Part shown: positions 4,799-61,547 of the stretch, piece by piece
Layout: every line of letters begins with the position of its first letter
How positions within the stretch are numbered: the first letter of the stretch is position 1
Assembly (NCBI GenBank): GCA_016932045.1
Contig: JAFGDO010000032.1
Coordinates: 21,599-85,598 of the forward strand
Direction: 5' to 3'
Source: Candidatus Dojkabacteria bacterium
GTDB lineage: Bacteria > Patescibacteriota > Dojkabacteria > JAHIVN01
DNA length: 64,000 bases
Translations under genes and position numbers: made by a program
The notes under the pieces: model-generated
The model's database searches: none
What the model saw: only the letters and a program-made list of their open reading frames with translations
Told to the model about the DNA's origin: nothing

Positions 4799-4847
4799 TC
4801 ATAATTTAGATTAGTAAATCCTTCTTTTGTAGTGACATTTTAAGAAG

Positions 4848-4919
4848 TGAGGGCGAGAGGACTCGAACCTCCAACCAATGGCTTAAAAGGCCACTGCTCT
4901 ACCATTGAGCTACGCCCCC
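4848..4919 (-). tRNA. tRNA-Lys (anticodon UUU)
   Basis: Reverse complement reads GGGGGCGTAGCTCAATGGTAGAGCAGTGGCCTTTTAAGCCATTGGTTGGAGGTTCGAGTCCTCTCGCCCTCA. It has a 7-bp acceptor stem, GCTC/GAGC D-stem, anticodon stem GTGGC/GCCAT with loop CTTTTAA (anticodon TTT), T-arm GGAGG-TTCGAGT-CCTCT and discriminator A. No CCA is encoded. The plus-strand ORF 4847..5146 overlapping it is spurious. Confidence 0.85.
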
Positions 4920-11715: not shown

Positions 11716-11761
11716 GTATCTCTTCACTTTGATAAATATAGATTTATGCTATAATACAGCA

Positions 11762-12172
11762 AGATTAATATTAAAAGCATCCGACCTCAAAATCATTGGG
11801 GAAAGCTGCAGGAAGAACCGATTCATTGTTCAGTACTTGTACTGAGTGAGTCCTGAGTTTATCGAAGGACGAGTCGAAGTAGAACCTGCCGGGTAAGCCC
11901 GTTAAGGCTGCCGTGCCCTGCTTGTCCTGATCCTGAATTTAATGAAGGAGAAGGAAGCGAATCCCGCTTAGCCAGCCTAGTCGGCAGACAGGCGGGAGGA
12001 GTCAAAGGGAAGAGCGATTAATATGATTAAACTATCGATCCGATAAGATTAATCAATATAATCGAATTTAAGGTGGTACCACCTGAATTCAACTAATGAT
12101 TATTAATTAGGTAAAAAGGTCCTTGTATTAATATCAATATTGGTATTAGTACAAGGACTTTTTTTACTGTAT
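11762..12172 (+). promoter_or_regulatory. putative T-box riboswitch leader of ileS. It contains a GC-rich core shared with the serS leader
   Basis: Long untranslated leader with a possible promoter (CTTTGA/TTGATA ... TATAAT at 11750-11755). It is GC-rich and structured inside an AT-rich genome. It carries AATTTAAGGTGGTACCACC at 12066-12083, matching the T-box consensus AANNNGGGUGGNACC. Immediately after comes the intrinsic terminator hairpin ggtccttgta...tacaaggac plus a T7 run (about 12118-12165). It lies upstream of an aminoacyl-tRNA synthetase gene. Confidence 0.5.
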
Positions 12173-12339
12173 GACTAAATTTCCGAAACACAATAAATGC
12201 TATACAAACCATTAGATAAAAAAGGTCAAATATTCGTTGAAATTGATGGCGAAAATTAAAAAGTATAAAAAGTTTAAACCAATCTCAAAGATGTTAGAGT
12301 AAATAAGTGAAACTTAATTAAATTATAAAATTCTTAAAA

Positions 12340-15894: not shown

Positions 15895-16175
15895 GTCTTA
15901 AGCAAACCTTGCAGCTGAAAGAAGGCAGATGTGCAAAAAACCAAACGCGCTTCAGTGAAACACTACAGAGAACTCCCTTCGGGACAGTACTTGTAGGGAC
16001 ACAATTTATTGTGTCCACAAGGAATAATTAGTAATAATTATTCACAAATGAGTGGTACCACGAGGGTAAACCAGATCAAAGATCGGTCCACCCTAAAAAG
16101 CTCTCGTCTCATAACAATCCAGCCAAAGGCTGACAAACAATTGTTAAGAGACGAGAGTTTTTTGTTTTGGAAGGA
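15895..16175 (+). promoter_or_regulatory. putative T-box riboswitch leader of argS
   Basis: Stem-I-like region gcagctgaaagaagg...; CGC (an Arg codon) in a candidate specifier context; and agtacttgtag, which also occurs in the ileS leader. The T-box motif AAATGAGTGGTACCACGAGGG sits at about 16047-16067. The terminator hairpin gctctcgtctc (16100-16110) / gagacgagag (16148-16157) is followed by TTTTTT. The ORF-track start at 16009 lies inside this leader and is rejected. Confidence 0.6.
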
Positions 16176-16212
16176 ATACTGTAAAATAGTTAATATTATA
16201 AAACTAAAAAAA

Positions 16213-18783
16213 ATGAAATTTAAAGTTTCACCGGAAATATTTGAAAAGTACCCGAATCTCATAGAGGCTATCGTCATTCTTAAAAACATTGATAATACTG
16301 TGGACGGCAAAGAGATAATTGAAATATTAAGGAACGAAGAAGAAAAAAAGAAGAATACATTATCAACAATTCAGCTGTCTAGCCATCCGGCTATCCAACC
16401 ATGGCGAGACGCATTCAAATCTTTCGGCTCTAAACCGAACAAATTCTCCTCATCAGTTGAAGCATTGTTAAAGAGGGTAGTTAAGGGGAACGAATTGCCA
16501 GATATAAACCCCCTTGTAAATCTCTACAACTACTGCTCTGTTAAGCACATCCTACCTTTCGGAGGCGAGGATTTCTCAGGAGTTTATGGAAATATGGAGC
16601 TCAAACATTGCGCTGGTGACGAGGAGTTTATTCCTATCATGTCAAAAGAGAACGAACCTCCAGATAAAGGTGAGGTCTCCTGGCTGGATGATCAAGGGGT
16701 AACTTGTAGAAAGTGGAACTGGAGACAGTGTGATAGAACAAAAGTTACAGAAAAAACAAAAGAAGGGTACTTCATTATTGATGGAATTCCCCCCGCCAAG
16801 AAAGAAGATATCAATGAAGCAGCTGAAGATTTCATCAAGCTGGCTAAGAAATATTTAAATGCTCGTGGAGAAATATACTGGCTGGATAGGAAAAATCCGG
16901 AGGTTGAAGTTAACATAAAAACCAAAGTAGCTGAAAGCTCTCAGCTGCCAGCTACCAACCTAAGAAAAGAAATGATAAAAACTCAAAAGATAAATAAGTC
17001 AACAAAAGATTTCTACAAAAAGAATCCGCTTGAAGATATGGTTGATGAAAGTCTAGTAAAGTACAAAGTAAGAGACCTTGTCTGGGAAGCAATAAAAAAA
17101 GCTAAGTATGGCAAGTACTTAAAGAAAGAAGATATAAAAGTCGAACATCCGCAGAATGAAGAATTCGGTGATTTTTCAACAAACGTGGCAATGGTTCTAG
17201 CGGGTAAATTAAAGAAAAAGCCAAACTTCGTTGCCGACGTGATTCAAGAACACATACCATCAAGAAACGTTATTCAGCATGTCTCGCTCAAAGAAGCTTT
17301 TATAAACTTCCATCTAAATCCAAAGTGGCTTGCAAATGAGATAAACAAAATACTTAAAGAAAAAGACACATACGGGGACTCATTGAAATCAAGAGAATTT
17401 AAGCTAATTGTTGAATTTGGACAGCCAAACACTCATAAGATGCCTCATATAGGTCACTTATTTTCATATATGTATGGAGAAAGTATAGCGAGATTAACAA
17501 AAGCAATGGGCCTTGAGATTTTTAGAGCTAACTATCAAGGAGATGTAGGTCCTCATGTTGCAAAATGTATCTGGGCTTTTATGAAGAACAAACCAGGTAT
17601 TCCAAAAACTCTAAGAGAAAAAGCAGGGCTATTACAAAAGATGTATCAGGAAGGTGCCACCGCTTATAAAGAAGATGAAAAAGCTAAAGAGGACATAGAT
17701 AGAATTAATAAAATGATTTATCTAAAGGACAAAAAGATCGATGCTATATACAAAGAGACAAGACAGTGGAGCGTAGACTTTTATGAAGAATTCGAAAAAA
17801 GCATCGGTGTACACTACGATAGATACTATTTTGAATCGGAAGTCGCAGAACTTGGGGAAAAAATCGTTAAGGACAATATCGGCAAAGTTTTCAAAGAGAG
17901 CAAAGGAGCGGTTATATTTGAAGGAAGCAAATTTGGTCTTCATGATAGGGTATTTATCACCAAAAGAGGTACGCCAACATACGAAGCAAAGGACATGGGG
18001 CTTCAAACTATAAAGTATAAGGAGTGGCCTTTTGATTATATGATGATATTTACAGCCCATGAACAAAGTGAATATTTTAAAGTGGTTATCAAAGCTCTTG
18101 AAGAGCTTAACCCAGTATTTCAAGATAGAATAAGACACTACGGTTTTGGAATGGTAAATCTAAAAAGTGGAAAAATGTCTTCAAGAACTGGCAATATTAT
18201 TACAGGAATAGGTCTTGTTGAACAAGCGATAGAAGCTGTAAAAAAATTAATCAAAGATAAAAACGATTTATCAGAAAAGGAGAAAGAAAAAATAGCTGAA
18301 AAAGTTGCTATAGCAGCAATAAAATACTCTTTCTTAAAAAATAATCCTTTTCAAGACTCAGTTTTTGATTTTGAAGAGAGCATAAACTTTGAAGGGAACT
18401 CTGGCCCATACCTTCAATATACTTATGCCAGGGCAAAATCAATTCTCAAGGAAATCGAACAATCTACAATCTACAATCTACCTTCCTCGCCGGCAGGCGG
18501 GCAATCTTCGAAAGATTTTAACACTGAAGAACTTCTAATTCTAAGAACATTATACAAGTTCCCTGAAGTCGTCTTCGAATCGGGCATGAATCTTGCCCCT
18601 AACCTACTCTGCTCCTATCTATTCGACCTAGCTCAGAAGTTCAATCTGTTTTACAAGAAACACAAAGTATTAAAAGCTAAAAACGAAGAGCGAAAAGCAA
18701 GACTCGCAATTACTGCAGCTACAGCACAGGTGATAAAGAATGGCCTTGGTTTGCTCGGGATAGAAGCACTTGAGAAAATGTAG
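16213..18783 (+). CDS. argS: arginyl-tRNA synthetase with an N-terminal B3/4-domain extension of about 290 aa
   Basis: Preferred start MKFKVSPEIF at 16213, after the T-box terminator. N-terminal region PWRDAFKSFGSKPNKFSSSVEALLKRVVKGNELPDINPLVNLYNYCSVKHILPFGGEDF...CRKWNWRQCDRTKVTEKTKEGYFIIDG matches the B3/4 domain (PheT editing-like, Pfam B3_4). The ArgS body follows, with the HIGH motif PNTHKMPHIGHL and the C-terminal DALR anticodon-binding region. One continuous ORF. Confidence 0.88.
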   Translation: MKFKVSPEIFEKYPNLIEAIVILKNIDNTVDGKEIIEILRNEEEKKKNTLSTIQLSSHPAIQPWRDAFKSFGSKPNKFSSSVEALLKRVVKGNELPDINPLVNLYNYCSVKHILPFGGEDFSGVYGNMELKHCAGDEEFIPIMSKENEPPDKGEVSWLDDQGVTCRKWNWRQCDRTKVTEKTKEGYFIIDGIPPAKKEDINEAAEDFIKLAKKYLNARGEIYWLDRKNPEVEVNIKTKVAESSQLPATNLRKEMIKTQKINKSTKDFYKKNPLEDMVDESLVKYKVRDLVWEAIKKAKYGKYLKKEDIKVEHPQNEEFGDFSTNVAMVLAGKLKKKPNFVADVIQEHIPSRNVIQHVSLKEAFINFHLNPKWLANEINKILKEKDTYGDSLKSREFKLIVEFGQPNTHKMPHIGHLFSYMYGESIARLTKAMGLEIFRANYQGDVGPHVAKCIWAFMKNKPGIPKTLREKAGLLQKMYQEGATAYKEDEKAKEDIDRINKMIYLKDKKIDAIYKETRQWSVDFYEEFEKSIGVHYDRYYFESEVAELGEKIVKDNIGKVFKESKGAVIFEGSKFGLHDRVFITKRGTPTYEAKDMGLQTIKYKEWPFDYMMIFTAHEQSEYFKVVIKALEELNPVFQDRIRHYGFGMVNLKSGKMSSRTGNIITGIGLVEQAIEAVKKLIKDKNDLSEKEKEKIAEKVAIAAIKYSFLKNNPFQDSVFDFEESINFEGNSGPYLQYTYARAKSILKEIEQSTIYNLPSSPAGGQSSKDFNTEELLILRTLYKFPEVVFESGMNLAPNLLCSYLFDLAQKFNLFYKKHKVLKAKNEERKARLAITAATAQVIKNGLGLLGIEALEKM

Positions 18784-36221: not shown

Positions 36222-36413
36222 ATGACTGAAGGATATTATCCAAGGCGTCAACCCACGCGAGAAGAAGCAGCTGCCGCCAAACAAGCACAAATGGAGAAAG
36301 CTCGTGAACTCCTAATCGCACAGTTACAAGCTGAAAATCCAGGATGTGAAATAGTATTCAGTGGAGGAATGATTCAAATCATCCCTCCTGAACAAAACCC
36401 TCCACAGGAATAA
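36222..36413 (+). CDS. hypothetical small protein (63 aa), paralogue of the next ORF
   Basis: Shares the L-Q-x-x-NPGC-x-I pattern (LQAENPGCEIVFSGG) with 36482..36760 (LQKLNPGCRISVWRG). Pro/Gln-rich C-terminus. Confidence 0.35.
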   Translation: MTEGYYPRRQPTREEAAAAKQAQMEKARELLIAQLQAENPGCEIVFSGGMIQIIPPEQNPPQE

Positions 36414-36481: not shown

Positions 36482-36760
36482 GTGCTTAAGAGCGTTAAAC
36501 AGGCAACTATTAAAAATATGGGATTAACTATGACTGAAGAAGGGCCTGACAATGAACAACCTACTCTACCAGAAGGAGCTGTCCCTAGTATGGTAGCTTA
36601 CTTACAGAAATTAAACCCGGGATGTAGAATAAGTGTTTGGCGGGGTGTTGGAGACGAAATGCTGTATAAAGCCATTCCCCTGCCCTCGGAACCTCAGCCT
36701 CCTCCAGAGCCTTCTCAAGGGGAAGGTAAGAAAGGTCCAATCTATATACAAAGGGAGTAA
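36482..36760 (+). CDS. hypothetical small protein (92 aa), paralogue of the previous ORF
   Basis: NPGC motif and a Pro-rich tail PSEPQPPPEPSQ. Confidence 0.35.
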   Translation: MLKSVKQATIKNMGLTMTEEGPDNEQPTLPEGAVPSMVAYLQKLNPGCRISVWRGVGDEMLYKAIPLPSEPQPPPEPSQGEGKKGPIYIQRE

Positions 36761-61159: not shown

Positions 61160-61450
61160 AACACAAAAACCCTTGTCAAAATACCGATATCCGATATTTA
61201 AACAAGGGTTCTTCGATTTACTCAGAACGGTGCCACCTTTATCTTGATTGTTTAATCGCTCTTCCCTTCGACTCCTCCCGCCTGTCTGCCGACTAGGCTG
61301 GCTAAGCGGGATTCGCTCAGGGCACAGCAGCTATCTCGGGCTTACCCGTTGACTTTCATCAATTACACTTAGTAGTAAATATTACCAAGCTTGAGTGGAT
61401 TCAAGAGAACTTGACTACCTAATCACAGTAAAAAGGCTTTCTGAAAGTGA
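61160..61450 (-). promoter_or_regulatory. putative T-box riboswitch leader of serS; shares the GC-rich core with the ileS leader
   Basis: On the minus strand: the conserved core GGGTAAGCCCG...CTGCTGTGCCCTG-AGCGAATCCCGCTTAGCCAGCCTAGTCGGCAGACAGGCGGGAGGAGTCGAAGGGAAGAGCGATTAA; then AAAGGTGGCACCG (plus 61228-61243), a T-box-like motif; then terminator hairpin aacccttgt...acaaggg + TTTTT (plus 61165-61210). It lies about 190 nt upstream of the serS start. Confidence 0.45.
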
Positions 61451-61547
61451 AGTTCAATTTACTAGCTCATTTAAGAATATTTAATTATAATGCTATTATA
61501 ACAAACCTGTAATTAAATAAACAATTTAATTAAACTATTGTTTCCTT

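Follow-up and report, generated by a model that had tools for sequence, protein, structure and literature searches.

A near-identical putative linker hairpin in the ileS and serS T-box leaders of a Dojkabacteria genome

A shared segment in two leaders

Why should the leaders of two genes that serve different amino acids carry almost the same segment of DNA, much richer in guanine and cytosine (GC) than its surroundings? The question is raised by a 64-kb stretch (called the window here, i.e., the whole stretch that was analyzed) from a Candidatus Dojkabacteria bacterium, which belongs to the Candidate Phyla Radiation (CPR); the SerRS and IleRS encoded in the window match NCBI proteins of such a bacterium with 100% identity. 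The segment occurs once upstream of ileS and once upstream of serS, in both cases within a T-box leader. A first-pass annotation of the window offered three explanations: a lineage-specific structured module, a recently duplicated or recombining sequence, or a small mobile element. The reading defended below, to which a probability of roughly 0.7 is assigned, is that the segment belongs to a lineage-specific add-on hairpin that was recently copied between the two leaders, and that it represents neither a new RNA class nor a mobile element. The two copies and the genes concerned are:

11956-12021, forward strand: shared 66-nucleotide core, ileS copy (pairwise alignment, pattern search)
61317-61252, reverse strand: shared 66-nucleotide core, serS copy (alignment, pattern search; also in the independent Logan contig L001)
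12340-15261, forward strand: ileS (TIGR00392, 813 bits)
60955-59654, reverse strand: serS (TIGR00414, 465 bits)

Direct reading and pairwise alignment define a core of 66 nucleotides (nt), AGCGAATCCCGC...GAGCGATTAA (in full, AGCGAATCCCGCTTAGCCAGCCTAGTCGGCAGACAGGCGGGAGGAGTC[A/G]AAGGGAAGAGCGATTAA), which is identical at 65 of 66 positions in the two copies; the sole substitution is A12004 in the ileS copy vs. G61269 in the serS copy. Upstream, the block CGGGTAAGCCCG (in RNA form, CGGGUAAGCCCG) is identical at 12 of 12 positions (11890-11901 vs. 61348-61337), and a second block, GCTGCYGTGCCCTG (GCUGCYGUGCCCUG), at 13 of 14 (11907-11920 vs. 61331-61318), with C11912 vs. T61326. The 5-nt spacers separating these blocks are unlike, TTAAG in ileS and AGATA in serS. 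Altogether, the shared tract contains 2 substitutions in 80 nt. The annotated picture of two near-identical copies on opposite strands, about 49 kb apart, with one core substitution and with shared blocks upstream, is thereby borne out. An extra insertion in the ileS copy is also real, but it measures 35 nt (11921-11955) and not 36 nt; similarly, the serS copy is indeed the reverse complement, but it extends from 61348 to 61252 and not over 61255-61365. That such identity is unexpected between leaders of genes for different amino acids was rightly remarked, as it far exceeds T-box conservation.

A 48-nt pattern of the core, with at most three mismatches allowed, has exactly two matches in the window vs. 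0 expected from 100 shuffles, which excludes chance. The contrast in composition was also correctly perceived: the GC content of the core is 62-65%, that of the window background 32-41% and that of the genome 37%, and the only stretches in the 64 kb reaching at least 65% GC over 40 nt are the two core copies, both non-coding, and one coding region at 36.2-36.7 kb. In an independent assembly of the same organism (Logan), the serS copy is reproduced, and the contig, L001, breaks off inside the core, as is expected at a true repeat. This break might be taken as a sign that the duplication is an assembly artefact, since contigs of metagenome-assembled genomes can be chimeric at repeats. Such an artefact is extremely improbable, as both copies are internal to one contig with distinct, gene-appropriate flanks (specifier and UGGN bulge), 2 substitutions and a 35-nt indel set the copies apart, and a second assembly is expected to break where a genuine repeat exceeds the k-mer in length.

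Both copies had been placed inside T-box leaders of ileS and serS, an assignment with which the specifiers, the UGGN bulges and the antiterminator and terminator elements agree. By their anatomy and predicted structures, both leaders are complete transcriptional T-boxes. Their scores with the Rfam model RF00230 are low. In permissive scans (E ≤ 10) of the two 801-nt regions, the ileS leader scored 20.5 bits (E = 0.028) and the serS leader 42.0 bits (E = 8e-8), whilst a scan of the whole window at the gathering threshold returned no T-box, the gathering score of 93 bits being reached by neither leader. Homologous leaders were reached via their proteins in a set of 103 fetched loci (645 kb together with the window), which are designated by L numbers. 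Insert-free CPR leaders in this set also stay below the threshold, with 44.8 bits for L005 and 30.5 bits for L007 as related sub-threshold scores; hence, the shortfall is due not only to the insert but also to the divergence of CPR T-boxes. The elements of the two leaders are:

11776-11807, forward strand: ileS Stem I, ultrashort, with an AGC/GCU base and K-turn-like flanks (sequence; RNAfold of 11762-11812)
11808-11889, forward strand: ileS Stem II region (sequence, Rfam alignment, comparison with L101, L007, L017 and L018)
11890-11910, forward strand: ileS Stem IIA CGGG-UAAG-CCCG, F-box GUUAAG and GCUG (RF00230 Stem IIA/F-box alignment)
12010-12066, forward strand: 5' part of the ileS discriminator, i.e., AAGAG (RRRxG), a long Stem III (12015-12064) and AA (motif per PMC7583486)
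12070-12168, forward strand: ileS T-box sequence AAGGUGGUACCACC, antiterminator and terminator (Rfam alignment, terminator scan, folds)
61391-61469, reverse strand: serS Stem I, long and canonical, with AG-bulge and distal loop (Rfam T-box alignment, 42 bits; sequence)
61328-61348, reverse strand: serS Stem IIA CGGG-UAAG-CCCG, spacer AGAUA and GCUG (sequence, Rfam alignment, pairwise alignment)
61165-61263, reverse strand: serS discriminator and terminator (Rfam alignment, folds)

Stem I of the ileS leader, which the Rfam alignment wrongly assigns to the next hairpin, has a short helix CCUC(AA)/(UU)GGGG above its base and presents the Ile specifier AUC (11792-11794), followed by A, in its terminal loop; AUCA is found at the same Stem I position in the ileS leaders of L017, L018, L100, L101, L020, L027, L083 and L095. 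In serS, the specifier is UCC at 61399-61397, in the context GAA-UCC-A (61402-61396). Hence, both leaders have a specifier codon that fits the gene under their control, with a purine after it. Stem II of ileS is closed by GCAGG/CCUGC and contains the S-turn-like elements GAAG...AGUAGAA. Downstream, the ileS leader reads CGGGUAAGCCCG-UUAA, with an F-box, and the serS leader CGGGUAAGCCCG without a GUUA F-box. The conserved GCUG after Stem IIA is a probable strand of Stem IIB, in which the loop sequence AGC would pair with GCU; the motif GUAAGCNCG-N5-GC(U/A)G is kept in 13 CPR leaders. AAGAG, Stem III and AA follow in both leaders, and this RRRxG-Stem III-AA motif marks the start of the discriminator domain (PMC7583486). 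In serS, AAGAG is located at 61263-61259, and a short Stem III (61257-61246, GAUU/AAUC) and AA come next.

The T-box sequence of ileS is AAGGUGGUACC, with the bulge UGGUACC at 12074-12080 (UGGU), and that of serS is AAGGUGGCACC, with UGGCACC at 61235-61229 (UGGC). UGGU and UGGC fit the usual A73 of bacterial tRNA-Ile and G73 of bacterial tRNA-Ser, respectively; neither tRNA gene was found in the window, where ARAGORN detected only tRNA-Lys (4847-4919). The ileS antiterminator consists of A1 (AAGG/CCUU) and A2 (ACCU/AGGU), with a 32-nt insert, and that of serS folds as A1 (AAGG/CCUU) and A2 (GUUCU/AGAAC), with a canonical 7-nt bulge. The terminator scan located an intrinsic terminator for ileS at 12116-12161, with a 20-bp stem and a U-run, which contains the CCUU partner of AAGG; in serS, minimum free energy (MFE) folds give a terminator stem from approximately 61210 to 61167, followed by a U-run, and CCUU is likewise common to its 5' arm. 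Antiterminator and terminator are predicted to be mutually exclusive in both leaders. Upstream, -10-like elements are present for ileS (TATAAT at 11750-11755, found by eye) and for serS (a TATAAT hexamer ending at 61484), and, on the serS side, TGTTATAAT is located at 61503-61495 (by eye).

Two further observations concern the 3' ends of the leaders. The T-box sequence of ileS lies within a near-palindrome, GAAUUUAAGGUGGUACCACCUGAAUUC (12064-12090), the self-fold of which is the MFE structure and can hide the UGGU bulge; according to the folds, it would be a third competing structure beside antiterminator and terminator. The spacers between terminator and start codon, 171 nt in ileS (12169-12339) and 209 nt in serS (61164-60956), are AT-rich, and no feature was identified in them. 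The equivalent spacers of L005, L018 and L103 hold small GC-rich hairpins, and the one in L103 (1445-1482, CUGCCCGCC...GGCGGGAG) has CAGGCGGGAG in common with the core.

A hairpin in the inter-domain linker

Both Rfam T-box alignments leave the core unaligned, an insert flanked by the Stem IIA/F-box positions on one side and by Stem III on the other. The order of elements is Stem IIA (CGGG-UAAG-CCCG), 5 nt, GCUG, 5 nt, CCCU, insert, AGGG, AAGAG, Stem III and AA. Judged by this order, the inter-domain linker contains an extra hairpin, immediately before the AAGAG-Stem III discriminator motif, and the core is its putative distal part. It had been assigned to the stem-II/pseudoknot region, whereas its actual site lies downstream of Stem IIA and GCUG. 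The two predicted hairpins are:

11916-12009, forward strand: ileS linker hairpin (insert in the Rfam T-box model; base homologous to the hairpins of L018, L017, L100 and L007)
61264-61322, reverse strand: serS linker hairpin (folds of 98-nt and 69-nt segments; inverted repeat)

In ileS, the base is formed by CCCU (11916-11919) with AGGG (12006-12009) and a distal helix by UCCCGCUU (11962-11969) with AGGCGGGA (11990-11997); in serS, the corresponding positions are 61322-61319 with 61267-61264, and 61311-61304 with 61283-61276. The folds of the 98-nt and 69-nt serS segments contain this 8-bp helix UCCCGCUU/AGGCGGGA with an apex of 20 nt, and the repeat search found TCCCGC/GCGGGA as the only perfect 6-nt inverted repeat in the serS copy. 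In shorter or longer constructs, a competing fold pairs UCCC with a distal GGGA. The 35-nt segment that is specific to ileS can form a small hairpin of its own, UCCU-GA-UCCU...AGGA-GA-AGGA, which would create a three-way junction. This segment contains a tandem TCCTGA-TCCTGA and resembles part of Stem II (11852-11872, GUCCUGA...GAAGGA), which suggests that it may have arisen by local duplication of that Stem II segment.

Two other interpretations of the region were tried and rejected. A 21-nt pair with 71% complementarity (11886-11906 with 11967-11987, including CTGCCG/CGGCAG) would make the core an inverted copy of, or a competitor for, Stem IIA; local alignment revealed no excess over 1000 dinucleotide shuffles (p ~0.85). 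A K-turn at the linker junction did not fit the geometry when inspected by eye.

Could the core be derived from another structured RNA, e.g., from the 3' part of a tRNA gene? By eye, GCGAAUCCCGC-UUAGCCA-G-CC resembles a T-loop, the 3' strands of T-stem and acceptor stem and a discriminator, and tRNA or rRNA typically has such a GC content. However, the likeness is limited to ~25 nt, and the complementary strand of the T-stem does not lie on the side that a tRNA requires. Moreover, no tRNA or any other covariance model of Rfam 15 hit the core at E ≤ 10 in either 801-nt region, the T-box model skipping over it, which also answers the suggestion that the core might prove to be a known family unrelated to T-boxes. 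As ARAGORN reported only the tRNA-Lys gene at 4847-4919, and no match of at least 13 nt was found elsewhere in the window or the loci, such an origin is highly improbable.

In IleRS and SerRS, identity to the nearest relatives available is ~75%. Four related ileS leaders contain a hairpin of 22-41 nt at the same site, with base pairs taken from single folds, leader by leader. The L018 leader (IleRS 75% identical) reads GCUGCCGUGCCCUGAAGU[14 nt]ACUUCAGGG-AAGAG, that of L017 (74%) GCUGCGAAGCCCUGAACC[11 nt]GGUUCAGGG-ACAGAG, with its 5' part also written as GCCCUGAACC, that of L100 (68%) GCUGAAACCCU-A-CUGA[AUUA]UCAG-AGGG-GAUGAG, with a CCCU base, and that of L007 (70%) GCUGGAAUCCCU...AGGGA, with a UCCCU base. 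Each folds above shuffles in stability (z -2.0 to -4.3). The base CCCU/AGGG is invariant across the four, and the next tier is compensatory at two pairs, GU/AC in L018 vs. CC/GG in L017. Above these pairs, the hairpins end in short and mostly AT-rich apices that show no relation to the core.

The ileS leader of L101 (IleRS 68%), which reads GCUGC-GAGAG, has no hairpin. Distant CPR ileS loci (IleRS ≤53% identity; 80 loci among the matches listed) served as outgroup, and the T-boxes seen in about a dozen of these 80 have no hairpin, with a few nt from GCUG to Stem III. Of the serS leaders, that of L005 (SerRS 70%) has the same flanks and no hairpin (GCGGGUAAGCCCG-AAAAA-GCUG-AAAGAGCGAUUU), that of L004 (75%) is a T-box without Stem IIA and without hairpin, and L002 (72%) and L103 (75%) have no T-box; the serS copy is, then, without orthologous precedent among the available serS relatives. 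The GC-rich core is absent from every homologous leader recovered.

Sequence comparison thus supports CCCU/AGGG as the closing helix of a linker hairpin, and shows that ileS leaders of this Dojkabacteria subclade have this base by inheritance; the GC-rich extension is, by the same comparison, apparently specific to the lineage of this genome. The proposal of a lineage-specific structured module consequently holds for the hairpin base, which is common to related ileS leaders, but not for the GC-rich core, and its absence from the relatives' leaders indicates a lineage-specific duplication.

The compared loci displayed some other traits. The Stem IIA/F-box motif GGGTAAGCCCGT..GCTG also occurs in L020, L022, L027, L030, L058, L067, L069, L070, L082, L083, L089, L094 and L095, ~100-700 nt upstream of ileS and in most cases followed by a T-box sequence (regular expression and inspection by eye). 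The loci with this motif are labeled Saccharibacteria, Moraniibacteriota, Magasanikbacteria, Woesebacteria and Parcubacteria, among others, and their ileS T-boxes are all below, or missed at, the Rfam threshold. In L017 (60-350) and L100 (1-335), the ileS T-box is located upstream of a NUDIX-DUF7768-ileS operon and not directly before ileS; L102 has the same operon and no leader.

Probable exchange between the leaders

In the serS copy, the spacer is the leader's own (AGAUA; AAAAA in L005) and is combined with C(U)GUGCCCUG, which is found elsewhere only in ileS leaders (CCGUGCCCUG in L018). This combination implies that the moved tract starts just after GCUG and came from ileS. Stem III tells of the opposite direction: that of the ileS leader in the window (GAGCGAUUAAUAUGAUUAAACUAUCGAUCCGAU...) aligns over its full length with Stem III of the serS leader of L005 (z = 12.3 vs. 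shuffles), whereas it matches its ileS orthologues at the T-box motif only. Since hairpin and Stem III were swapped, the two leaders are chimeras of each other, and since specifiers and UGGN bulges are still gene-appropriate, the exchange was probably non-reciprocal, i.e., by gene conversion and not by crossover. The count of 2 substitutions in 80 shared nt points to a recent last exchange.

We infer the following course of events. In this lineage, the ileS hairpin would have been lengthened by ~50 nt of GC-rich sequence, after which gene conversion, with the short conserved T-box blocks on either side as homology, would have transferred the entire hairpin to the serS leader; sequence of Stem III may have moved the opposite way, from the serS type into ileS. 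Recent copying between leaders would explain the identity at 65 of 66 positions. A recently duplicated or recombining sequence is the best of the readings offered in the first-pass annotation.

A further observation may be relevant in this respect. The terminator hairpins of ileS (12116-12161) and serS (61210-61167) and those of L004, L007, L017 and L100 are alike, including their loop-proximal parts (CCUUGU..AAUAUC..GGUAUU..ACAAGG). This likeness across genes and genomes exceeds what the overlap with the antiterminator needs and appears to be further evidence of shared ancestry or exchange among leaders.

Could the core, alternatively, be a small mobile or repetitive element, such as a miniature inverted-repeat transposable element (MITE) or a repetitive extragenic palindromic (REP) sequence, that was inserted independently in both leaders? 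Two near-identical copies on opposite strands 49 kb apart, a foreign-looking composition, an imperfect direct repeat around most of the core (GAGCGAAT / GAGCGATT, found by eye) and the presence of short GC-rich hairpins with CAGGCGGGAG in other Dojkabacteria 5' untranslated regions (L103) would fit this possibility. Yet, the copy count that had been suggested, made with blastn-short over the window and the 103 loci (645 kb), yielded only these two copies, which share their position (the linker) and their type of riboswitch (the T-box), and no match was found in viral contigs, plasmids or phages. There are no terminal inverted repeats, only the internal 6-nt TCCCGC/GCGGGA, and no direct repeat was reported in the serS copy; the second copy of the GAGCGAAT/GAGCGATT repeat is the ancestral Stem III flank, which is present in L005. 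Besides, the shared tract includes the vertically inherited base of the ileS hairpin (C[C/U]GUGCCCUG...AGGG), which, therefore, is not an element terminus. A mobile element, as had been suggested, is thus very unlikely. The pattern GTAAGCNCGNNNNNGCTGCYGTGCCCTG had 0 matches in the genome collection, of which the source genome is not a member.

Several points weigh against recent copying of an add-on hairpin. The homology arms that a first transfer could have used are short (12-14 nt), which leaves recombination a putative mechanism. The relatives, at only ~75% identity in IleRS and SerRS, include no intermediate stage. The copy search covered 64 kb of the source genome, and further copies may exist elsewhere. 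A GC content of 62-65% is unlike that of a neutral insert in a genome of 37% GC and may be a sign that a stable structure was selected or that the sequence has a foreign or structured-RNA origin. Finally, the fold of the core is ambiguous, with two competing MFE folds and z-scores of only -1.5 to -2.6, and two near-identical copies give no covariation.

Two other regions of the window are worth mentioning. The coding region that also reaches 65% GC comprises 36222-36413 and 36482-36760 on the forward strand, two small open reading frames (ORFs) of 63 and 92 amino acids with a common LQ..NPGC motif and Pro/Glu-rich tails, which may encode paralogous small proteins. The stretch was considered as a related RNA and rejected, as it has no Rfam match and is covered by the two ORFs. 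The argS gene (16009-18783, forward strand) encodes a fusion of 924 amino acids with an N-terminal B3/4 domain (residues 132-264), known from the β-subunit of PheRS, and a complete ArgRS; it has no T-box leader upstream. The relative L016 has the same combination of B3/4 and ArgRS.

Possible function and comparison with known systems

Located between the -10-like element and the terminator, the hairpin would be co-transcribed with the leader. The CCCU/AGGG helix would join its ends, so that the effective length of the linker would be nearly that in hairpin-free leaders. With the linker length kept, canonical tRNA sensing can be expected to proceed, i.e., by pairing between specifier and anticodon, binding of UGGN to the 3' end of the tRNA and stabilization of the antiterminator. 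From these predicted folds, we infer that the hairpin is a tolerated structural expansion, a segment projecting from the riboswitch; at most, it would tune folding or timing, or add stability before RNA polymerase reaches the terminator.

The core might, instead, be an add-on domain under strong selection, i.e., a site for tRNA contact, for a protein or for a second ligand, that was recruited into several leaders, in which case the identity would result from purifying selection together with recent copying. A GC content of 62-65% in a genome of 37% GC is as in structured RNAs, the 8-bp helix UCCCGCUU/AGGCGGGA is possible in both copies, and the differences at 11912/61326 (C-to-U) and 12004/61269 (A/G) are both outside this helix. 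In addition, the hairpin base is kept in the subclade, lineage-specific T-box insertions may contact tRNA (PMC7583486; for stem Sa, PMC4574755), and an extra contact could help an ileS T-box that has no Stem I distal platform. However, the distal sequence is kept in no orthologous leader, the short, mostly AT-rich apices in L018, L017, L100 and L007 being unrelated to it, and serS orthologues do without any hairpin. Furthermore, a 35-nt insertion at the junction is tolerated in the ileS copy, the window hairpins are not significantly more stable than shuffles (z -1.5 to -1.8), and the two copies provide no covariation. Selection as the cause of the identity is, therefore, considered unlikely. 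Decidedly unlikely is the bolder variant in which the core is a self-contained plug-in domain for the T-boxes of this CPR lineage, i.e., a new platform that contacts tRNA or binds a protein, that compensates for or adds to the missing distal platform of Stem I and that was spread by recombination for its regulatory advantage.

If, as we prefer, an add-on hairpin was copied between leaders, then a riboswitch class held to be vertically conserved, though modular, can acquire a helix peculiar to one lineage at a site that permits it, the linker that connects Stem IIA/B with Stem III, and paralogous leaders in one genome can exchange parts. Because leaders can do so, sequence identity alone is not evidence of shared function. 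For annotation, the insert and the divergence of CPR T-boxes help to explain the sub-threshold Rfam scores of the leaders, and, if the insert is functional, it offers a handle on how T-boxes are tuned.

As to its form, the hairpin recalls the expansion segments of rRNA and other structured RNAs, in which a helix of variable length extends from a fixed point whilst base and core are conserved; given the different RNA class, this analogy is descriptive only. As to its history, Vitreschak and co-workers are said to have concluded in 2008 that T-box leaders evolve by duplication and specifier change and that paralogous leaders of a genome have a common origin, with whole domains that can be inherited or swapped. 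In contrast to the exchange of a whole domain, the exchange seen here is partial, affecting hairpin and Stem III, whilst Stem I architectures, specifiers and bulges stay different.

The literature search retrieved no paper linking T-box riboswitches with CPR or Patescibacteria. In decoding layout, the ileS leaders of the window and its CPR relatives appear to be the same as the actinobacterial ileS T-boxes with ultrashort Stem I, as these are summarized in a review (Sherwood et al., 2015, via PMC7583486): by that summary, the common layout consists of a K-turn, a very short Stem I with an AUC-A loop, Stem II, Stem IIA/B and a very short linker. Relative to the actinobacterial leaders so described, the linker hairpin was added in this Dojkabacteria subclade. 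Also according to the summary, the actinobacterial T-boxes are translational and sequester the ribosome-binding site, whereas a strong intrinsic terminator is found here 175-210 nt before the start codon. Such ileS T-boxes with ultrashort Stem I, an AUC-A loop and no distal platform are present in the window (11776-11807) and in L017 (80-330), L018 (800-1120), L100 (15-330) and L101 (900-1125), and they end in strong intrinsic terminators at least 175 nt before the start codon. They look transcriptional by these predictions, whilst an ultrashort Stem I has been associated with translational T-boxes and the distal platform reported as essential in transcriptional ones (PMC7583486).

"Curious insertions" in every T-box domain were listed as an open question in a 2020 review (PMC7583486), and two of the known examples resemble the linker hairpin. 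Stem Sa of staphylococcal glyS T-boxes is a species-specific hairpin of 42 nt without homologue elsewhere, for which a modulating effect on tRNA fit and on termination was proposed (Apostolidi et al., 2015, PMC4574755). Like the linker hairpin, it is a lineage-specific intervening hairpin in a T-box leader; unlike it, it is located in the antiterminator/terminator domain and restricted to one amino-acid class. Closer in position is the met-operon T-box of Staphylococcus aureus, which carries a 150-nt insertion with stems L I-III at this exact linker site, as well as a 3-nt loop-to-downstream pairing like the proposed Stem IIB (Wencker et al., 2021, PMC7913692). There, too, a lineage-specific insertion of unassigned role is found in an otherwise canonical transcriptional T-box (PMC7913692). 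The S. aureus insertion, for which processing by RNase III was shown, comprises 150 nt and three hairpins in one leader of a Firmicute, whereas in the present case a single hairpin of 59-94 nt is found, near-identical, in two leaders for different amino acids in a CPR bacterium, and no sequence similarity exists between the two. The linker hairpin thus adds, in the CPR, a second independent example of an insertion at a site so far known from the S. aureus met leader only, and its novelty would lie not in a new RNA class but in a T-box with a previously undescribed linker hairpin that is common to two leaders.

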